A stretch of 64,000 nt of DNA from Clostridia bacterium. Its GTDB lineage: Bacteria; Bacillota; Clostridia; Oscillospirales; CAG-272. The notes below the pieces were generated by a model. It was not told the DNA's origin. It did not search any database and saw nothing but the letters and a program-made list of their open reading frames with translations. The stretch lies in the NCBI GenBank assembly GCA_017387685.1, contig JAFOEU010000055.1:17602-81601 (forward strand), read 5' to 3'. Below are positions 1,776 through 61,206 of this stretch, one piece after another (the first letter of the stretch is position 1; each line of letters opens with the position of its first letter). Made by a program: the position numbers and the translations under genes.

Positions 1776-1950
1776 GGGGTGAAGGAGCGAAATCCTCCCG
1801 CTTGCGGGAGGATTTACTCCTTCCAAAACGGCGCCGAGGGCGGCGCCGCTTTGAAGCACGGAGAGTGTTTCGACCGCTGCGGCGGTCGACTTAAGGCTCC
1901 GCCTTAAGAAACCGCAAACTTTTAAAAAAGTTTGATCAAAACTTTCCGCT
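1776..1950 (+). repeat. ~170-nt multi-hairpin intergenic element, copy 1
   Basis: GGGGTGAAGGAG...CTCCTTCC, followed by stem-loops and ending CAAAACTTTCCGCT; homologs at 27725, 31636, 49659, 52943, 55352. Confidence 0.8.
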
Positions 1951-1973: not shown

Positions 1974-2052
1974 AAAATCCCGCCGGATCCGGCGGGATTT
2001 TAACCTTCAACTATCAACTAGCAACTAGCAACTAGTAACTAGCAACTAATAA
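1974..2052 (+). repeat. hairpin + ACCTTCA + six CTAGYAA-like heptamers (probably also the mtlD terminator)
   Basis: aaaatcccgccggatccggcgggatttt, then ACCTTCA, then CTATCAA CTAGCAA CTAGCAA CTAGTAA CTAGCAA CTAATAA next to the mtlD stop. Confidence 0.8.
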
Positions 2053-19469: not shown

Positions 19470-20630
19470 TTATTCGGATAAAATGTCCGCGAGAACGGCG
19501 AGTGCTTCGTCGATCTCTTCGTAAGTGATATTGAGGGGAGGCAGGAGGCGAACCTTGTCTTTAGCGGAGAGGAAGAGAACGCCGCGCTCGATGCCCGCCG
19601 CGATGATCTCGGGGGTGGGCTTATCGGCTTTGATACCGATCATGAGTCCGAGACCGCTGACCGACTGCACGCCCTTCATTTCTGAAAGTTTTTTGAATAT
19701 ATATTCGCTCTTAGCGCGAATCTCGGTGAGGAAATTTTCGTCAAGACGGCTGATGACGTTGAGCGCGCCCGCCGCGCAAGCGGGATTTCCGCCGAAGGTC
19801 GAGCCGTGCGTGCCCGCGGAGAGCGTGTCCTTGACCTTTTCGCCGAGGATGACGGCACCGATCGGGAGTCCGCCGCCGAGTCCCTTTGCGGTCGATATGA
19901 TGTCGGGCTTGACGCCGAACTGCTCGAAAGCGTAGAGTGTACCTGTTCTGCCGTTTCCGGTCTGAACCTCGTCGGCGATGAGGAGGATATCCTTTTCCTC
20001 GCAAGCCTTCGCGATCGCGGTGACGTAGTCCTTATCAAGCGGATTGACGCCGCCCTCGCCCTGAACGAATTCGAGCATAACGGCGCAGACGTCATCGGTC
20101 AAAGCCGCGAGCATCGCATCGAGATCGTTCGCGGGGACGTGGCAGAATCCCTCGGTAAAGGGCATAAAGGTGGTGTGGAAAACGTCCTGACCCGTAGCCG
20201 CGAGGGTGGTTATGGTTCTTCCGTGGAAGGAGTTGACGAGGGTAACGATCTTGTGTCTGCCTTCGCCGTATTTGTCGAACGAGTACTTGCGCGCCGCCTT
20301 GATCGCGCCCTCGTTCGCCTCTGCGCCCGAGTTGCCGAAGAAAACGCGGCACATACCCGTGCGGTTGCAAAGCATTTCGGCGAGCTTTGCGCAGGGGGAG
20401 GTGTAGTAGAGGTTGGAGGTGTGGGAATAAGCGTTCAGCTGTGCGGTGACAGCCGCAACCCACTCGTCATCGGCATAACCGAAGGTGTTGGTCGCGATGC
20501 CCGAGCCCATGTCAATGTATTTTTTGCCGTTTACGTCGTAAGCGACCGCACCCTTACCCGAAACGATCTCGACGGGGAAACGGCGGTAAGTATTGGCGAC
20601 GTATTTATTATCAAGTTCGAAAGTATTCAT
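19470..20630 (-). CDS. argD: acetylornithine aminotransferase
   Basis: SGAEANE, SFHGRT, DEVQTG, AKGLGGG, HGSTFGGNP. Confidence 0.93.
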   Translation of the reverse strand: MNTFELDNKYVANTYRRFPVEIVSGKGAVAYDVNGKKYIDMGSGIATNTFGYADDEWVAAVTAQLNAYSHTSNLYYTSPCAKLAEMLCNRTGMCRVFFGNSGAEANEGAIKAARKYSFDKYGEGRHKIVTLVNSFHGRTITTLAATGQDVFHTTFMPFTEGFCHVPANDLDAMLAALTDDVCAVMLEFVQGEGGVNPLDKDYVTAIAKACEEKDILLIADEVQTGNGRTGTLYAFEQFGVKPDIISTAKGLGGGLPIGAVILGEKVKDTLSAGTHGSTFGGNPACAAGALNVISRLDENFLTEIRAKSEYIFKKLSEMKGVQSVSGLGLMIGIKADKPTPEIIAAGIERGVLFLSAKDKVRLLPPLNITYEEIDEALAVLADILSE

Positions 20631-20647
20631 TTTTGCACCTGATGAAA

Positions 20648-21172
20648 AAGTTGCTAGTTGCTAGTTACTAGTTACTAGTTGAAGGTAGATTTTCTCGCCC
20701 GAAGGCGAGAAAATCAATTAATTGAAGCTTCAATTCTAGTAATTAAAGATGTAAGCATACGAGCAATCTCTTGTGATAGCTGTTTGATGGGTTTAATATT
20801 GCTTGATGAAATATAGCCGATGCGCTCGCAAATCAATAGTTGGGTGAACAATTCAGCATTTGAGCCTTTAGCTATACATAAAAATTTGAGAAATTCTTTT
20901 TGACTGTTCCTGGAATGTCCTTCGGCAATATTGGAAGGGATAGAAACTGCAGCTCGACGCATTTGATTTGTGATGCCGTATAATTCTTCTCTGGGAAAGT
21001 GTTTGGTGAGGCTATATATCTCCACAGTAAGATCCATGGCTTTTTGCCAAACGTTAAGCTGTTCATATCCTTTTGCTTCCATTATATAACCATTATTTAT
21101 TAAAAATACTTTTCGAGCAACGCGAGAAAAGTTACCTTCAACTAGTAACTAGTAACTAGCAACTAGCAACTT
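20648..21172. mobile_element. cassette bounded by a perfect 40-bp heptamer-based inverted repeat, carrying a four-helix-bundle gene
   Basis: 20648-20687 AAGTTGCTAGTTGCTAGTTACTAGTTACTAGTTGAAGGTA is the exact reverse complement of 21133-21172; AT-richer interior. Confidence 0.6.
20714..21082 (-). CDS. four helix bundle protein (23S rRNA IVS protein / Avd-like fold)
   Basis: LNVWQKAMDL, FPREELYGITNQMRRAAVSIPSNIAEG, FLCIAKGSNAEL-TQL. Confidence 0.92.
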   Translation of the reverse strand: MEAKGYEQLNVWQKAMDLTVEIYSLTKHFPREELYGITNQMRRAAVSIPSNIAEGHSRNSQKEFLKFLCIAKGSNAELFTQLLICERIGYISSSNIKPIKQLSQEIARMLTSLITRIEASIN

Positions 21173-22028
21173 ATTCCAGCACCATTGTGCCAAGACCTTC
21201 ATCTGTCAAGATCTCAATCAAAATAGAGTGCGGAACTCGTCCGTCGATGATGAAGACGCGCTTTACGCCGCCTCGGACAAGATCCGCGCATCCGTTTACC
21301 TTCGGGATCATTCCGCCCGAGATCGTTCCGTCCGTGATCATCTTATCTATATCGTCAAGGTGTATCTGCGAGATGAGAGTGGAAGGGTCGTCCTTATTCG
21401 CAAGTATGCCGGGGGTGTCGGTCAGCGAGATGAATGCCTCCGCGCCGAGTGCCGCCGCAATCTCGCCCGCCATTGTGTCGGCGTTGATATTGTAGATCTC
21501 GCCCGTCTTATCGCACGCAACGCTCGAAATTACGGGAATATAGCCCTTATTCAGCACGTCGGTAATAAGTCCAGTATTGACCTTGGTGATCTCGCCGACG
21601 TATCCGAGTGCGGGATCAAGCTCCTTGACGTGGATCATATTCGCGTCAATTCCCGAAAGTCCCACAGCAAGTCCGCCGACCGAGCCAATCAGTCCGACCA
21701 GACCCTTATTGACCTTTCCCGCGAGGACCATCGTTGCGACCTTTGCGGTCTCTGCATCGGTCACGCGGAGTCCGTTTTCGAATTTGCTCTCGATATTCAT
21801 TCTCTTGAGCGTTTCGGTCAGCGCGGGGCCGCCGCCGTGGACGAGAACTACCTTGACTCCGATGCGGTTAAGCAGTGCAACGTCGCGCATAACGTCCTCT
21901 TTGAGGCTTTCGTCGATCATCGACGAGCCGCCGTATTTGATGACGATTATTTTGTCGGTGTATTTTTTAATATATGGAAGTGCCTCGACCAGCACTTTTG
22001 CGCGGTCTGCGTTTGAAATATTTATCAT
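21171..22028 (-). CDS. argB: acetylglutamate kinase
   Basis: VIKYGG, VHGGGP, GLRVTD, NINAD, GGMIPKV, DGRVPHS. Confidence 0.95.
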   Translation of the reverse strand: MINISNADRAKVLVEALPYIKKYTDKIIVIKYGGSSMIDESLKEDVMRDVALLNRIGVKVVLVHGGGPALTETLKRMNIESKFENGLRVTDAETAKVATMVLAGKVNKGLVGLIGSVGGLAVGLSGIDANMIHVKELDPALGYVGEITKVNTGLITDVLNKGYIPVISSVACDKTGEIYNINADTMAGEIAAALGAEAFISLTDTPGILANKDDPSTLISQIHLDDIDKMITDGTISGGMIPKVNGCADLVRGGVKRVFIIDGRVPHSILIEILTDEGLGTMVLE

Positions 22029-23242
22029 GTTCTGTAATCTCCGTTGATCTTGACGTAATCGTATGTCAGGTCACAGCCCCACGCGGATGCGGATTCCTCT
22101 CCCATGCCGAGGGTGATATTGACCTGAATTTCGTCACAAAGAAGGATCTCCTTTGCCACCTCTTCCGAGAAATCAACGCCTGCGCCGCCGCGGCAGACCT
22201 CGATCTCGCCCGCCTTCGATGCGAAACAAACGCCGATAGTGTTAACGTCCACCTTCGCTCCCGAGTAGCCGATGGCGCAGAGGACTCTGCCCCAGTTTGC
22301 GTCCGCGCCGAACATTGCCGCCTTGAAAAGGCTTGAGCAGATGACGGACTTTGCAACTACGCGCGCGGTGTCCTTGGTGTCCGCGCCGCTTACGTTGCAC
22401 TCGAGTAGCTTGGTCGCGCCCTCGCCGTCAGCCGCGATAGCACGGCAGAGCTTGGAGGTAACTGCGAAGAGTGCTTCCTTGAAGAGGGCGAAATCTGCGG
22501 AATTTTCGTCGATCATATCGTTGCCCGCCATACCGTTAGCCATTACGGAGAGCATATCATTGGTCGAGGTGTCGCCGTCGACCGAGATCATATTGAAGGA
22601 GTTCTTGACGTCCTCCTTGAGTGCGGCGTCGAGTGCCGCGGGGGTGATAGCAACGTCGGAGGTGACGAAAACGAGCATCGTTGCCATATTGGGGTGGATC
22701 ATACCCGAGCCCTTTGCGATACCGCCGATATGGCAGGTCTTGCCGCCGAGCTCAAACTCTACCGCAACGCTCTTGAGCTTGGTGTCGGTGGTCATAATGC
22801 CCCAAGCCGCATCGTCCGAGCCCTCGTAGGAAAGCTCCGAAACGAGCTGATCCATTCCGTTTGAGATGGGGGTAATATCAAGCTTCTGACCGATAACGCC
22901 GGTCGATGCAACGATAACGTCCTTTGCGGGGATGCCGGTCGCCTTATAAACGAGATCGCACATTGCCTCGGCGATCTGAATACCGTCGGCGTTGCAGGTA
23001 TTTGCGTTGCCGCTGTTGCAGATCATAGCTCTTGCGCATCCGTCCGCAAGATTTGCGCGGGTGACCTTGATGGGCGCACCGCATACGAGGTTGGTGGTGT
23101 AAACCGCCGCCGCGGATGCCTTAGTATCGCTGACGATCAGGGAGAGATCCTTTTTGGTCTTATTCTTGCGGATGCCGCAATGAACGCCGGCAGCCTTAAA
23201 TCCTTTAGCGGCGCAAACGCCGCCTTCGATATACTTTATCAT
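22025..23242 (-). CDS. argJ: bifunctional ornithine acetyltransferase / N-acetylglutamate synthase
   Basis: NSGNAN, STGVIG, IMTTDT, KGSGMIHPNMATML, DGDTSTND, YVKINGDYRT. Confidence 0.96.
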   Translation of the reverse strand: MIKYIEGGVCAAKGFKAAGVHCGIRKNKTKKDLSLIVSDTKASAAAVYTTNLVCGAPIKVTRANLADGCARAMICNSGNANTCNADGIQIAEAMCDLVYKATGIPAKDVIVASTGVIGQKLDITPISNGMDQLVSELSYEGSDDAAWGIMTTDTKLKSVAVEFELGGKTCHIGGIAKGSGMIHPNMATMLVFVTSDVAITPAALDAALKEDVKNSFNMISVDGDTSTNDMLSVMANGMAGNDMIDENSADFALFKEALFAVTSKLCRAIAADGEGATKLLECNVSGADTKDTARVVAKSVICSSLFKAAMFGADANWGRVLCAIGYSGAKVDVNTIGVCFASKAGEIEVCRGGAGVDFSEEVAKEILLCDEIQVNITLGMGEESASAWGCDLTYDYVKINGDYRT

Positions 23243-24183
23243 AATACAAGTCCTTTCACGGGGCAGGCCCCGATTGCTATGTTCATATTCTCGATCGCGG
23301 CGCCCGATGCACCCTTGCCGAGGTTGCAGAATAATGCATAAATATTCATCGTATATTCATTACCCGAAACGATGATCTGCATCGAATCCTTGCCCGAGAG
23401 CGAATTCGAGAAGATCAGCCCGTCGGGCGTGCCCTTTTCACATAGGGGAGCGACCGAGATGATGGGGCTGTTTTTGTAATGCTCGGTGTAAAGCGCGTGC
23501 ATTTCGGCGACCGAGAGCTGCTTTTTCGCGAGGCGCATCTGAACGGGTACGCATACGCACATTCCCGAATAAAAATCCGAAACGATCGGATTGAATGCGG
23601 GGGCAAAATCAAGCGAGCAGACCGACTTGATCTCGGGAAGATGCTTATGTGCGGCGGTCAGCGCGTACTGACAGGGAGAATCGAATTTGGTGTCGCGTCC
23701 GTCCGCCTCATAATCGGCGATCATCTTCTTTCCTCCGCCCGAATATCCGGTCAGGCTGTGGATGGCGAAAGGATAGTCGGCATCAAGGATTCCGTGCGCT
23801 ACGAGGGGGTAAAGGATCGCTATCGCTCCGCTTGCGTGGCAGCCGGGATTTGCGATGCGCTTCGAGGCTTTGATCTTCGCCTCGTGATCGGGCGAAAGCT
23901 CGGGAAAACCGTATGCCCAATTGGGATTTGTGCGGTGTGCGGTCGAACAGTCTATAATAACGGTGGAGTCACTTTTGCATAATGTCACAGCCTCGCGAGC
24001 CGCATCGTCGGGCAGACAGAGGAAGGTGACGTCCGACTCGGAAATAGCTCGTCCCCGCGCCTCTGCATCCTTGCGAAGCTCCTCGGGAAGAGTGATGAGC
24101 TCAATGTCCTCGCGGGAGGCGAGACGCTCGTGGATGCGCAGTCCCGTGGTGCCCGCGCTACCGTCGATAAATACTTTTTTCAT
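23239..24183 (-). CDS. argC: N-acetyl-gamma-glutamyl-phosphate reductase (type 2)
   Basis: VFIDGSAGTTGL, ANPGC, GYSGGGK, NLGKGASGAA. Confidence 0.95.
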   Translation of the reverse strand: MKKVFIDGSAGTTGLRIHERLASREDIELITLPEELRKDAEARGRAISESDVTFLCLPDDAAREAVTLCKSDSTVIIDCSTAHRTNPNWAYGFPELSPDHEAKIKASKRIANPGCHASGAIAILYPLVAHGILDADYPFAIHSLTGYSGGGKKMIADYEADGRDTKFDSPCQYALTAAHKHLPEIKSVCSLDFAPAFNPIVSDFYSGMCVCVPVQMRLAKKQLSVAEMHALYTEHYKNSPIISVAPLCEKGTPDGLIFSNSLSGKDSMQIIVSGNEYTMNIYALFCNLGKGASGAAIENMNIAIGACPVKGLVL

Positions 24184-24234
24184 CAAAAATTTTCTCCAAA
24201 AAGAAATAATATCTCATTAAAAAATATGTATTAT

Positions 24235-27724: not shown

Positions 27725-27903
27725 GGGGGTGACAGAGCGCACTACTTCCCTACATTCGGGAAGTAGTGACTCTGTCCAAAATCCCGAAGCAGAGCTTCGT
27801 GATTTTGAAGCGCGGAAGCGCGAGCTGAAGCTCGCGCATTAGTCCGAGGCTCTGCCTCGTGCTCCGCGAACTTTTGAAAAAGTTCGATCAAAACTTTCCC
27901 GCT
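27725..27903 (+). repeat. ~170-nt multi-hairpin element, divergent copy 2
   Basis: GGGGGTGACAGAG...CTCTGTCC and conserved ending; stems differ in sequence but still pair. Confidence 0.7.
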
Positions 27904-27926
27904 TTCTTCCTTTTTATAATAATAGA

Positions 27927-28045
27927 AAATTTTCGAGCGCAGCGAGAAAATTCACCTTCATTTTGCCGAAGGCAAATTATCACTCTCGCGTAAGCGAGAT
28001 TATCACTTCGCCGCAGGCGAATTATCACTCGCGCGAAGCGCGACA
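27927..28045 (+). repeat. leader + CACCTTCA + TTATCAC/mini-hairpin array upstream of the acyltransferase RBS
   Basis: tttgccGAAggcaaa TTATCAC tctcgcgtaagcgaga TTATCAC ttcgccGCAggcgaa TTATCAC tcgcgcGAAgcgcga. Confidence 0.85.
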
Positions 28046-31819: not shown

Positions 31820-31942
31820 AAAATTTCCGAGCGCAGCGACGGAAATTCACCTTCAATTTGCCGCAGGCAAATACATTATCACTCTCGCGAAGCGAGATTA
31901 TCACTCTGCCGAAGGCAGATTATCACTCACGCGAAGCGTGAC
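31820..31942 (+). repeat. leader + CACCTTCA + TTATCAC/mini-hairpin array upstream of rarA
   Basis: Four GCA/GAA-loop hairpins separated by TTATCAC. Confidence 0.85.
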
Positions 31943-33207: not shown

Positions 33208-33889
33208 AGCGAGTGCGAACCCTCATCATTTGGGTAAAGTGATGAGTTTCTCCTACGGAGAAACGTGATGATTTGGCTTCGCCAAAGTGATGATTGCGCT
33301 TCGCGCAAGTGATGTTTCGTCCTTCGGACGAAGTTAAGGTAATTTTTCGCCGAGGCGAAAAATAATTTATTAAATGACAAGTGCGAACATAGCACACTTG
33401 GTGTCCCCTCATCACCCGCTGCGGCGGGAGCTTCTCCCAGGAGAAGCCTAGGGGGCAAGGCGGATGCCTTGCGTGAAATATTTCGCCTGCGGCGAAATGT
33501 GAAATTTTTGCTTCGCAAAAGTGAAATTCACGCTTCGCGTGAGTGAAATATTCCGCTAAAGCGGAATGTTAAGGAAGAAATTTGCCAAGGCAAATTTCAA
33601 ATTTTATAAAATCAATGTAGGCTGAACATAGAATTCGCAGTTCTAAACCTTAGGCTTCTCCTGGGAGAAGCTCCCGCCGCAGCGGGTGATGAGGGGACAC
33701 CAAGAAAGCTATGTTCGCACAAGCAATTTTTATTAAGATTGAAATTTACCTCGGCAAATTTCCACCTTAACTTCGCCCGAAGGGCGAAACATCACTTGCG
33801 CGAAGCGCAATCATCACTTTGGCGAAGCCAAATCATCACTTTTCTCCGCAGGAGAAAAACATCACTGATGATCTGTGTTCGCACTCGTT
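33208..33889. repeat. ~680-bp nested palindromic intergenic region
   Basis: Outer inverted CATCAC-linker arrays (33208-33363 / 33740-33889), inner ~70-bp REP-like inverted pair (33381-33450 / 33651-33720), central GTGAAAT-linker array (33472-33598). Confidence 0.85.
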
Positions 33890-49658: not shown

Positions 49659-49822
49659 GGGTGAAGGAGCAAAAATCTCCCCGAGGGGAGATTTTACTCC
49701 TTCCGAACAGCCGACGGGGCGTCGTCTGTTCGAAGCACGGAGAGAATTTCGCGCTCTGCGGAGCGCGACTTAAGGAACTTTTTGAAAAAAGTTCCTTAAG
49801 AATCTTCAAAAACTTTCCCGCT
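49659..49822 (+). repeat. ~170-nt multi-hairpin element, copy 4
   Basis: Homologous to 1776-1950 and 31636-31799. Confidence 0.8.
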
Positions 49823-49844: not shown

Positions 49845-49988
49845 GAAAATTTTCGAGCAAAGCGAGAAAATTAACCTTCATTTTGCCGAAGGCAAATTAT
49901 CATTCGCGCGAAGCGCGATTATCACTCTGCCGCAGGCAGATTATCACTCTTGCGAAGCAAGATTATAACTCGCGCCCTCGGCGCGACA
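49845..49988 (+). repeat. leader + AACCTTCA + TTATCAC/mini-hairpin array upstream of the flavin reductase
   Basis: Five hairpins separated by TTATCA(C/T) or TTATAAC. Confidence 0.85.
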
Positions 49989-53079: not shown

Positions 53080-53180
53080 TTAACTTCGCTTTCCGCGAAG
53101 CGGAAATTATCACTCGCTGTAAGGCGATTATCACTCTGCCGTAGGCAGATTATCACTCTCGCGCAAGCGAGAATATCACT
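53080..53180 (+). repeat. TTATCAC/mini-hairpin array running into the GH127 stop codon
   Basis: Four hairpins; the last ATATCAC contains the TCA stop complement at 53176-53178. Confidence 0.8.
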
Positions 53181-55035
53181 GCTCGCCCCGCGAGCACGGC
53201 AGCCATGCGGCAATCTCGCTTTCCCAGTCCTTACCTGCGGATTGGTAGTCGACGAGGTAGAACTTTTCACCGTTTTCGTCGGTGAATTCGAGTTTAAGGG
53301 TGTATTTTTCGTCCTCACAGATGCAGTAATCGTAGTTTTTGAAGCTATACTTACTATTTGCGTCCTTACCAAGCGAAGAATCGGCGGCGAGGGTGATAGG
53401 TCCGCGCGAGAGCGAGATGAAATTGTCGTCCTCATCGTAATGACGGACCGCGACGGGCGGCTTGCGCGTGCCGCAGGTGTTGATGTAGAGCACGTCAAGA
53501 TCCCATTTTTCCGGAAGCGTTTCGCGGATCGACATATCGAGGTCGAGTGCGATTTCGGTCGAGCCCGCTCCGACGTGATAGATCGCGTAGCCGTCCTTTT
53601 GCTTGATATTTTCATTCTGCGCCCACGCGGGAATGCGGAGCTTAAGGCAGAAATCGCATTCAGAGGTGATTTTAAGCAAAATCTTGCCGTCCGCGGGGTA
53701 TTTTGTTTCGGTTTTGATGGAAATTTTACCGCGCTCGGTGGTGATCTCCGACTCACCCTGCTCGTAGAAATTCAGGACAACACAGCCGTTATTATCAACC
53801 ACGGCGTGCTTGGCAAAGATTCCGACACCCGCCGCGCCGATGCAAACGCAGCATCCGTAATATCTTCCGTCCTCGAGGATCTGAAAACCGCCGACAGTGC
53901 GTCCTCGGCGTCCGGGGCGGAGCGGGGAATAGCTGTCGAAGGGGAGGGGGACGGGCACCATTTTGTCGAGCATATTGATCTTTGCGAATCGCTCGCGGAC
54001 GTAGCCGTCGCGGCTGACGAGCATTTTCTCATTGAGCGAGCCGAGGTAGGCGTTATAGAAGGAGTGCTCGATCGCGTCGGCGAAAACACTCTCGCCGGTC
54101 AGCATAAAGAGGCGCGAGCAGAACTTCATCCAGGTCACGGTCACGCAGGTCTCCTGCATAATGCCCTCGTAGAACTGCGTCTGTCGGGTCTTGGTGTGGT
54201 CGAAAAGCTCGTGCGTACAGCCCGAGGAGCCGATGACGGAAATTTCGCTGTCAAGAACAGCTTTTGCAAAGTTGACCACGGCTGTTTTGTACTTTTCGAT
54301 GCCCGTGACGTAGTAGAATTCAAGCAGTCCTTCAAAGCAGGACATCATCTCGTAAGCCTTCGCGACGCCGTACTGATAGGGGAGGAGCGTGTTTTCATAG
54401 GCGAGCTCAAAGACGTTGATCTCGCTGCCGCCCGATTCGACTATGTAGGCGGCGAAATCAAGATATTTCTGCGCGCCCGTCAGGTTGTAAAGACGTACCA
54501 TCGGCTCAAGGATCGAGGAAGAATTGAGACCGAGCCAATGCTTTGTAGCCTTGTTGATGTGAATTTTGCCTTCCTCTTTGCCGATGTGCGCGATTATGTA
54601 GTCGGCGGCACGGCTGATGGCGGCGATGATCTCGGATTTAAGCGCATCGTCGGAGCAGATATCGAGGTAGTATTCCAAGCCGAGGATAACGTATTTGCGG
54701 CACCAGAGATCCCACGCGCGAAATTCGGTGTCTTTTGTAAAGGAAGATATCCTGCCGTCGGGAGCGATGACGGAGATCATATCGCGAACGGTCTCGGTGA
54801 GGATGCAGAAAAGCTCCGCATCGCGGGAGTATTCGTAAACGAGGACAGCACCGCGCATCATCTTGCCCCAATATTCACCGCGCCAACCGTTGTTGACACC
54901 GTCAATGGGGCGGCGGAACTGATCGACGAAACGGCGCCACATATCACGGTCGGAGAGCTGATTTTTGGTAAGGAAATCGACAGCACGGGCGGTAAGACCC
55001 GAATATTTTTGTTTTAAGTTAAAATAATTCATCAT
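53176..55035 (-). CDS. GH127-like (beta-L-arabinofuranosidase family) glycoside hydrolase
   Basis: WRGEYWGK, KAYEMMSCFEGL, QETCVTVTWM, GCC, YP.DG.I, LRIPAW, RGPI.LA. Confidence 0.8.
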   Translation of the reverse strand: MMNYFNLKQKYSGLTARAVDFLTKNQLSDRDMWRRFVDQFRRPIDGVNNGWRGEYWGKMMRGAVLVYEYSRDAELFCILTETVRDMISVIAPDGRISSFTKDTEFRAWDLWCRKYVILGLEYYLDICSDDALKSEIIAAISRAADYIIAHIGKEEGKIHINKATKHWLGLNSSSILEPMVRLYNLTGAQKYLDFAAYIVESGGSEINVFELAYENTLLPYQYGVAKAYEMMSCFEGLLEFYYVTGIEKYKTAVVNFAKAVLDSEISVIGSSGCTHELFDHTKTRQTQFYEGIMQETCVTVTWMKFCSRLFMLTGESVFADAIEHSFYNAYLGSLNEKMLVSRDGYVRERFAKINMLDKMVPVPLPFDSYSPLRPGRRGRTVGGFQILEDGRYYGCCVCIGAAGVGIFAKHAVVDNNGCVVLNFYEQGESEITTERGKISIKTETKYPADGKILLKITSECDFCLKLRIPAWAQNENIKQKDGYAIYHVGAGSTEIALDLDMSIRETLPEKWDLDVLYINTCGTRKPPVAVRHYDEDDNFISLSRGPITLAADSSLGKDANSKYSFKNYDYCICEDEKYTLKLEFTDENGEKFYLVDYQSAGKDWESEIAAWLPCSRGEQ

Positions 55036-57670: not shown

Positions 57671-57812
57671 AATCTCGCTTCGCGAGAGTGATAATCTCGC
57701 TTCGCTCGAGTGATAATCCGCCTTCGGCGGAGTGATAATCTCGCTTCGCGAGAGTGATAATTTGCCCCTTGGGGGCAAAATGAAGGTAAATTTTTGCTTC
57801 GCAAAAATTTTC
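57671..57812 (-). repeat. GTGATAA/mini-hairpin array + TGAAGGT + leader after the ptsI stop
   Basis: Five hairpins separated by GTGATAA; inverted partner at 58606-58689. Confidence 0.85.
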
Positions 57813-58605: not shown

Positions 58606-58689
58606 TTTTCGCGAAGCAAAATTATCACTCCGCCGAAGGCGGATTATCACTCTCACGAAGTGAGATTATCACTCGCGCAAAGCGCGACA
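58606..58689 (+). repeat. TTATCAC/mini-hairpin array upstream of the EIIA gene
   Basis: TTATCAC tccgccGAAggcgga TTATCAC tctcacGAAgtgaga TTATCAC tcgcgcaaagcgcga. Confidence 0.85.
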
Positions 58690-61042: not shown

Positions 61043-61206
61043 CACGCCGAAGGCGTGTATATCATCAATTCCGAAGGAATTGCATATCATCAACACGAAG
61101 TGTTGTATATCATCAAGCCGCAAAAATACACGCTTCGCGTGATGATATACGCCTTCGGCGATGATATACACGCTTCGCGTGATGATATACCAAGCCTGCG
61201 GCTTGG
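61043..61206. repeat. head-to-head TATATCATC / GATGATATAC-linker mini-hairpin arrays
   Basis: GAA-loop hairpins with TATATCATC linkers on the left, TTC-loop hairpins with GATGATATAC linkers on the right. Confidence 0.8.

Follow-up and report, generated by a model that had tools for sequence, protein, structure and literature searches.

The subject of this analysis is a cassette of 533 bp (20644-21176) that separates argB from argD in a 64,000-nt stretch of DNA from a Clostridia bacterium (the window, in whose positions coordinates are given): an AT-rich segment in which a gene for a small four-helix-bundle protein is enclosed by inverted arrays of heptamers. The genes at this locus all lie on the minus strand, following one another as argC (23239-24186), argJ (22025-23242), argB (acetylglutamate kinase, 21171-22028; the upstream host gene), the cassette gene (20714-21082) and argD (acetylornithine transaminase, 19470-20630; the downstream host gene); each of the four arg genes passes its NCBIfam cut-off. 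The assembly to which the window belongs, referred to as G000, comprises 2.58 Mb and is 84.7% complete.

The two arms of the cassette (20644-20698 and 21122-21176) were delimited by a repeat finder as 55-nt sequences that are 95% complementary, with three mismatches. Between them runs an exact match of 40 nt (20648-20687 / 21133-21172), which agrees to the base with the 40-bp inverted repeat of four heptamers plus core described in the initial annotation of this DNA; the mirror image is exact even in the order of the G/A variants. Both arms follow one plan from outside to inside – an outer AAG, four TTRCTAG units, the core TTGAAGGT and a small hairpin. Read on the plus strand, the argD-proximal arm carries the outer AAG, its four TTRCTAG units at 20651-20678, the core TTGAAGGT at 20679-20686 and the start of the inner hairpin, and the argB-proximal arm carries the core as ACCTTCAA (21134-21141), four CTAGYAA units (21142-21169) and an outer CTT. 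The hairpin downstream of the cassette gene (20688-20715, minus strand) has a perfect 12-bp stem (20688-20699 / 20704-20715) and a 4-nt loop, overlaps the stop codon of the open reading frame (ORF) and is also formed in the predicted RNA fold. The hairpin upstream of the gene (approximately 21108-21132, minus strand) is imperfect, and its module also heads arrays of 22-nt hairpin units at approximately 27926 and 49846: the segment 21101-21139, comprising this right-hand hairpin and most of the core, is identical to the array leaders (27926-27965 and 49846-49885) at 29 and 31 of 39 bases respectively. A leader hairpin on each side, with the right one nearly matching the array leaders, was thus rightly noted at the outset.

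The fit of the cassette between its host genes is close. The argB stop codon (21171-21173) falls within the argB-proximal arm, and the end of the argD-proximal arm (20644) lies 2 nt from argD's own Shine-Dalgarno sequence, AGGTG at 20637-20641; the initial annotation had placed the arms in just this way, one over the argB stop and the other immediately ahead of the argD ribosome-binding site (RBS). It had likewise described the gene as richer in AT than its neighbours, and GC content is indeed 36.4% in the cassette against 52.7% in argB and 56.8% in argD. Neither the heptamers nor their inverted arrangement resemble background: the heptamer pattern CTAGYAACTAGYAA, with at most one mismatch, has 11 matches in the window where 0.05 are expected from 100 shuffles, and alignment of one flank of the gene with the other gives a score of 95, compared to a maximum of 58 among 265 shifted control positions in other loci.

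The sole ORF inside the cassette encodes a protein of 122 aa. Its score against PF05635 is 144 bits, where the cut-off is 33.8, with residues 7-112 aligned to profile positions 1-106; it also exceeds the cut-offs of 24 for TIGR02436 (139.9 bits) and 137 for NF008911 (152.3 bits). PF05635 is a very large family for which we know of no function. By sequence match the closest solved relative is 2gsc_A (XCC0516; E = 3.7e-26), and the solved relatives 2gsc and 2rld each have five chains per entry; according to PMC4990558, Xcc0516, the Xanthomonas homologue, is a homopentameric ring. By homology the cassette protein is therefore probably ring-shaped and pentameric. Values of dN/dS among cassette genes of the genus range from 0.04 to 0.10 (eight of nine pairs tried, those for which dS was computable), a pattern of substitution indicating that the gene is under strong purifying selection. 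The protein matched none of the PADLOC anti-phage defence models at E <= 0.01. No relatives of the cassette DNA were found in phage records, and comparison with plasmids returned one weak match that covers 20% of the query at 73% identity.

Taken with the evidence from other genomes set out below, this layout leads us to consider it probable that 20644-21176 represents a single copy of a four-helix-bundle cassette with heptamer arms – a small, selfish element built like the ORF-bearing intervening sequences (IVSs) of 23S rRNA, and lodged in the spacer of a protein-coding operon. The initial annotation had called the gene Avd/IVS-like. Membership of PF05635 and the IVS-like stem-loop layout uphold the second half of that label; the first half fails, in that the protein is not an Avd. 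Avd (bAvd), a protein of diversity-generating retroelements (DGRs), belongs to the same four-helix-bundle fold family, and the bAvd and DivGenRetAVD models do pick up a weak resemblance, as they would were the locus a DGR remnant and its protein an Avd. Yet the scores lie below the cut-offs (30.5 against 40 for PF22296; 26.4 against 80 for NF033474), the assembly, at 84.7% completeness, contains no match to the reverse transcriptase family RVT_1, and no pair of template and variable repeats was seen; we find a DGR origin scarcely credible.

That the cassette is an insert was examined by comparison with a genus set of 38 genomes. Twelve of these carry an argB that is 94-98% identical, and ten of the twelve show both sides of the argB-argD junction. 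None of the ten has a PF05635 gene there. In seven the junction is occupied by a hairpin-rich element of approximately 380-440 nt with a terminal inverted repeat of its own, and in the other three (G004, G021 and G002) by an ORF-less mini-cassette of 155-188 nt with heptamers of ATGAATA type and inner hairpins homologous to those of the arg-locus cassette. In three distant congeners (L113, L114 and L116) argB and argD stand 4 nt apart and the junction is empty. The empty-site comparison proposed in the initial annotation thus gave the result anticipated for an insert – an empty junction in distant congeners and different inserts in all ten readable close relatives – and this alignment of junctions supports the view that the cassette is an insert at the argB-argD junction.

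The same comparison bears on the possibility that the gene is a domesticated arg regulator, the protein binding the heptamer stem in the arg mRNA and serving the host by adjusting how strongly argD is expressed or how stable the message is. The cassette is so placed at the argB-argD junction that the argD RBS is intact; purifying selection acts on its gene, which has the same orientation as its hosts. But a regulator of arginine genes would hardly be expected to be missing from this junction in all ten readable close relatives, nor to have family members at a def-fmt junction, at a cas6-cas4 junction and in many other unrelated contexts, nor to differ so far in GC content from its neighbours (36% versus 53-57%). 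We regard domestication as very improbable.

Several observations on the elements that occupy the argB-argD junction deserve record. The hairpin-rich element of approximately 400 nt (L098, L100-L102 and L105-L107 in the seven close relatives) ends in a GATCAAAACTTTCC-like motif that also precedes the hairpin arrays and a solo arm in the window (1930-1950, 27880-27903 and 49800-49822). The mini-cassettes, of which a further example was found (L103, L104, L108 and L163), share the ATGAATA-type heptamer and have inner hairpins that are nearly the same. The repeat families are mosaics of shared modules.

A second cassette allows the argument to be extended to another junction. The assembly contains six PF05635 genes, and the second-best match, on contig C17, lies between def and fmt within arms of the same design made of TTRTTAG units (78 nt, 83% complementary); its protein is 68% identical to that of the arg locus, and both cassettes are oriented with their operons. 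A paralog with the same inverted heptamer flanks, as sought by the initial annotation, therefore exists. In relatives, the def-fmt junction is empty in G010 and G018 (11 and 25 nt), holds an ORF-less ATGAATA mini-cassette in G021 and hairpin elements in others, and in G002 and G009 is occupied by a four-helix-bundle cassette with AGTGGAC arms. Vertical inheritance of the def-fmt cassette was considered and rejected: its protein in G000 is 61% identical to that in G002 and G009, while def itself is 94% identical, which indicates that the site was refilled and not inherited. In G021 the heptamer array provides the def stop codon. Two ORF-less elements of G000 were also compared with five close relatives, in which other inserts, a small gene or contig breaks stand in their places; where G000 has an ORF-less element of 189 bp, three relatives (loci L172, L174 and L175) have a small cysteine-rich ORF of approximately 150 codons in its stead. 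Operon junctions in this clade of gut Clostridia are, then, sites of rapid turnover of structured inserts, a fact that bears on how operon structure and transcript ends are read in metagenome-assembled genomes (MAGs).

A critical issue is the extent of the unit that occupies these sites. In the genus, cassettes of one type found at different sites resemble each other over the whole span between their outermost heptamers, and outside it they are unrelated. This holds for L124, which occupies the def-fmt junction of G002, when set against L149, also in G002, and the L149 orthologue L126 in G045: the arm of L124 differs from that of L126 and L149 at 3 of 39 bases, whereas 60% of synonymous sites differ (pS 0.60). 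Arms that change so little in the face of such synonymous divergence are part of what moves and are conserved in sequence. Seven cassette heptamers were seen in the genus (AGTTRCT, AGTTRTT, AGTGRCT, AGTGGAC, AGGGCAG, AGTGCAG and AAATGCA), and between cassettes both arms always change heptamer together. The AAGGT core and the hairpin are kept in cassettes of the AGTTRCT, AGTTRTT, AGTGRCT, AGGGCAG and AGTGCAG types, are absent from AGTGGAC cassettes and are not evident in those of AAATGCA type. The unit is composed of arm, hairpin, PF05635 gene, hairpin and inverted arm. Across the genus, PF05635 is present in all 16 genomes with at least 7 hits in the generic arm search described below (controls gave 0 to 6), and all 12 genomes that lack PF05635 have at most 3 arm hits.

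Arms are far more numerous than the genes. A strict search of the whole assembly (at least three TTNCTAG units plus the core) recovered 56 arms, among them 11 convergent pairs less than 5 kb apart, eight of which are only 156-299 bp long; a generic search (four AGs spaced at 7 nt, with the core after them) recovered 90, compared to four in a reversed-sequence control. By type the 90 comprise 42 AGTTRCT, 26 AGTTRTT, 12 AGGG-type, 5 AGTGCAG, one AGTGRCT and four others, and the two commonest types are those of the two resident cassettes. A strong positional bias is evident: read in its own direction, an arm is preceded in 42 of 56 cases by an open frame of 100 codons or more whose end falls between -40 and +21 nt (random oriented positions, 232 of 3000), one of these frames being a spurious one antisense to argD. 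In 12 cases the AAG of the arm is fused with a stop codon, most often TAA, and the argB-proximal arm is one example. GAATAAG was entertained as a conserved first unit supplying the stop and was discarded: only the outer AG is kept (48 of 56 arms), and GAATAAG itself occurs three times. The solo arm reported in the initial annotation was confirmed and placed at 1977-2052 (minus strand); it is of AGTTRCT type, consists of hairpin, core and five heptamers, and adjoins the stop codon of an open frame of 429 codons, likewise on the minus strand. ORF-less versions with matched arms are thus spread over this genome beside stop codons, and a single genome combines a cassette that bears the gene, its sister with a related heptamer type and some 90 ORF-less arms of matching types.

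The abundance of arms at gene ends raises the most serious alternative: that each arm is an independent copy of a module that follows stop codons, with the gene lying between two of them by chance, in which case there would be neither a cassette nor a link between protein and arm. The adjacency of 42 of 56 arms to the end of a long open frame, with the argB-proximal arm among them, is what such a module would produce; hybrid pairs of unlike arms exist (2 of 20 in G000, and L191), and wider pairs, of 3.3 kb and 1.8 kb, enclose ordinary genes. Against this, the argD-proximal arm follows no real gene, the only frame ending there being that antisense to argD, and chance neighbours would not be expected to show an exact mirror image of 40 nt that includes the order of the G/A variants. 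Moreover, 16 of 20 convergent neighbouring pairs (within 700 nt) share the same narrow heptamer type where 6.3 are expected (P ~1e-4), from which it follows that most pairs are units with matched arms and not chance neighbours. Of the other four, two have degenerate members of the same type and two are clear hybrids. Add to this that arms and gene are common to copies at different sites as one block, and that inverted arrays flank 63 of 76 homologues across phyla, and an explanation by independent arms becomes unlikely, though it is the alternative we take most seriously.

The last of these points comes from 80 homologue loci (45-59% identical) from many bacterial phyla and two archaea, 76 of which were usable. 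For each, the 220 nt upstream of the gene were aligned with the reverse complement of the 220 nt downstream, with 265 shifted controls. The median inverted-repeat score was 38 in homologue loci and 17 in controls; 63 loci exceeded the control 95th percentile and nine the control maximum. When the genus loci were added and stricter gap costs applied, 64 of 113 loci scored at least 35, and the best self-period of their arms was 7 in 55 loci, 8 in seven and 9 in two. Flanking inverted repeats, mostly of period 7, are a trait of the family at large. One locus merits particular mention: on plasmid pANA02 of Anabaena sp. 90 (L182; NC_019429.1, 43509-45416) cas6 and cas4 are separated by a gene annotated 'four helix bundle protein', with a GGTGACA/GGGAACA array of approximately 280 nt ahead of it and an inverted array after it, near the annotated cas4 start. 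The four-helix-bundle family was reportedly once listed among cas-associated genes, and the pANA02 layout may explain that listing.

The same loci inform a further possibility, namely that the cassette is an invertible DNA switch, its intervening segment being turned over by recombination of one 40-bp inverted repeat with the other. A perfect 40-bp inverted repeat around a segment of 445 bp is the configuration required. Nevertheless, orientation relative to the neighbours is fixed. Among 89 loci with enough flank, a crude longest-frame rule called both neighbours in 33, and of these 27 were co-directional (+,+), four (-,+), two (+,-) and none (-,-). Furthermore, the neighbours of the cassette are arg genes and no recombinase is among them, and both G000 cassettes point the same way as their operons. 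A switch is accordingly highly improbable.

How might an element of this design persist within an operon without harm to its host? On the reading of the segment as a selfish, IVS-like cassette, it would have no promoter of its own and be transcribed with argCJB-argD; a simple, crude scan of the cassette gave no promoter or terminator match on the strand of the gene. In the minus-strand RNA spanning 20630-21190 the arms are paired in the predicted fold, which reaches a minimum free energy of -177 kcal/mol (shuffled sequences, -116.8 +/- 5.3; z = -11.3). By analogy with the IVSs of rRNA, the stem of approximately 50 bp could be cut by host RNase III, for which the assembly encodes a gene, and cutting would split the arg message between argB and argD. 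Arms that offer stop codons in all six frames, together with preservation of the downstream RBS, would make insertion at the end of a gene harmless. The ring-shaped protein, for its part, may act on the periodic 7-nt arms and so promote the upkeep or spread of the cassette and its ORF-less derivatives. The initial annotation had proposed that the arms pair in the mRNA and loop out the gene. This is plausible on the strength of the predicted fold and the presence of RNase III, although a signature of pairing in the sense transcript was wanting, as detailed in the next paragraph.

A number of findings weigh against the interpretation offered here, and are best considered together. Across 292 mismatch columns from 64 arm pairs, wobbles compatible with pairing in the sense RNA number 73 and antisense-only wobbles 79; the excess of sense-strand wobble tried as a signature of RNA pairing gave no signal, so that the case for pairing specifically in the sense transcript gains no support. 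Only 28 of the 64 arms have a stop in every one of the three inward frames (control segments, 10 of 320), so that all-frame stops were rejected as a universal property of the arms. Four of the 20 pairs fall outside the same-type count; two of them are the clear hybrids (C17:23740-23859 and C48:100258-100827), and one further hybrid pair occurs in another species (L191, from a Clostridia MAG of goat cecum). With heptamers of unlike type, the arms of such pairs cannot pair via them. Approximately 17 arms of AGGGCAG-like and AGTGCAG types have no resident cassette in the assembly, and in other species none of 10 loci with arms of the arg-locus type has a four-helix-bundle gene within 700 nt of them. 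A one-to-one relation between protein cluster and heptamer type was tried and rejected: L134, an AGTGCAG cassette, encodes a protein 79% identical to that of L129 (AGGGCAG) and 78% identical to that of L150 (AGTGCAG). The genomes of the genus are kin, and the co-occurrence of arms and PF05635 may thus reflect shared ancestry. No clean empty site was found among 5-12 close relatives for the two ORF-less elements or either cassette junction; in every relative the place was filled by another insert or a small gene, or was lost to a contig break or rearrangement. No direct repeat of the kind left by target duplication is visible at the borders of six cassettes, and in the absence of an empty site among close relatives a target duplication is unreadable. 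Finally, neither a Y1 transposase (PF01797) nor a reverse transcriptase (PF00078, RVT_1) was matched in the assembly at its 84.7% completeness.

Comparison with known systems places the cassette closest to the ORF-bearing IVSs of 23S rRNA, such as those of Coxiella burnetii (with S23p) and Leptospira, in which, according to PMC4990558, a PF05635 ORF occupies the loop of a stem formed by terminal inverted repeats. In Coxiella the terminal stem is of 28 bp, the 5′ arm contains tandem GACAGAT heptamers (two to three copies, variable in number among strains), and RNase III cuts at the first of them (PMC4990558). Further likenesses reported there are a poor Shine-Dalgarno sequence, a GC content below that of the host, spread that is thought to be horizontal, and excision of the IVS by RNase III. 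The differences are equally plain. The arg-locus cassette sits in the spacer of an mRNA operon and not in an rRNA helix – Rfam detects no rRNA in the window, and a location in 23S or 16S rRNA is part of what defines an IVS – while the long stem from terminal inverted repeats around an ORF is present. Its arms are of 55 nt as opposed to a 28-bp stem, and are found on dozens of ORF-less copies as well; and strong purifying selection acts on its gene, in contrast to the Coxiella ORF, which PMC4990558 describes as decaying and unexpressed. The arg-locus case thus presents an IVS-type cassette in a new setting, in a genome that is a good place to test the role of the protein.

Heptamers in gene spacers have their own literature. 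PMC4692102 describes intergenic heptameric repeats in Xanthomonas (GGGAATC, with 70-75 convergent inverted pairs) and Nostoc (GGGGAYT), and PMC4679880 the TAACTGA repeats of Beggiatoaceae, which provide stops in all frames and adjoin gene ends. Like the arms, these are tandem 7-nt units in gene spacers, and their function is unexplained; the arg-locus units differ in having a conserved core and hairpin. The terms 'intervening sequence', 'four helix' and 'S23' are absent from both texts, and hence neither ties its repeats to PF05635. Already in print are rRNA IVSs with this ORF, the heptamers of the Coxiella IVS, convergent heptamer pairs and stop-rich arrays. Full-text searching, whose coverage left out most subscription journals, turned up no paper that treats PF05635 cassettes with heptamer arms as a class beyond rRNA.

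Likenesses to other small elements are less complete. Terminal inverted repeats, many copies and no internal transposase are what characterise a miniature inverted-repeat transposable element (MITE) or a mobile insertion cassette, and all three are found here. MITEs of the Correia/NEMIS type are small, intergenic and co-transcribed with their neighbours, as well as having terminal inverted repeats and many copies, and Correia stems are reported to be RNase III substrates; the present elements differ from them in their arms of tandem heptamers and in carrying no gene but one that is not a transposase, nor was a target duplication seen. With repetitive extragenic palindromic (REP) sequences, the mosaic elements that they form (BIMEs) and their associated transposases (RAYTs) they share hairpin modules in gene spacers, combined as mosaics, but no Y1 transposase accompanies them in the assembly. 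HutP, which recognises UAG every 7 nt, and TRAP are ring proteins that read spaced triplets in RNA. A multi-subunit ring and a periodic RNA containing NAG would be common to both cases, the repeat here being UAG plus 4 nt; any parallel is one of functional analogy only, the folds being unrelated to that of PF05635.

Reports of tandem heptamers in the gene spacers of bacteria go back to approximately 1990, and no explanation has been given for them. A broader conjecture would bring them together with the cassettes: PF05635 rings might be the trans-acting partners of transposase-less mobile cassettes whose ends consist of periodic words, either heptamers or 22-nt units of Gut-1 type. Gene-bearing cassettes would then be autonomous; arrays of the short tandemly repeated repetitive (STRR) kind, the Xanthomonas GGGAATC pairs, TAACTGA repeats and the ORF-less spacers with heptamer arms that lie at gene ends would be their non-autonomous progeny, and the IVSs of rRNA copies that had landed in rRNA. 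We advance this tentatively and think it rather doubtful as it stands. The arg locus, with what accompanies it in this genome, turns both the function of PF05635 and the heptamer repeats into questions for the bench: whether the ring binds the heptamers, whether RNase III cuts the stem, and whether the cassette moves.

The 22-nt units enter this conjecture through the remaining paralogs. Of the six PF05635 genes in the assembly, two adjoin inverted heptamers and four adjoin 22-nt hairpin arrays of the Gut-1 kind. These four (L003-L006: C37:18381-18671, C74:7980-8273, C35:56107-56406 and C48:82582-82866) encode proteins 19-28% identical to the arg-locus protein and have no heptamer arms. An array recognised by Tandem Repeats Finder (TRF) lies within 400 nt of three of the four; by our estimate all 93 TRF arrays cover approximately 4% of the genome at that distance. 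The earlier proposal that the arg-locus protein is the partner of the arrays is not supported as it was written: what is seen is an association, all six paralogs adjoining some repeat array.

At L005 the flanking arrays are mutually inverted, with AGTGATAAT on one side and ATTATCACT on the other. Many gene spacers of the window contain arrays of this kind, in which each 22-nt unit consists of a variable small hairpin and a constant linker of approximately 9 nt, such as ATTATCACT. A separate observation concerns G047, in which two short PF05635 fragments (29 bits each; C69:13161-13872) stand beside a full-length copy and look like decayed tandem copies. Within the window, arrays of 22-nt units are situated at 27958-28043, 31875-31938, 33265-33314, 33471-33554, 33770-33842, 49884-49975, 53106-53186, 57671-57761, 58621-58674 and 61056-61190; one array in the window passes the Rfam Gut-1 model (RF01706), at 54.8 bits.

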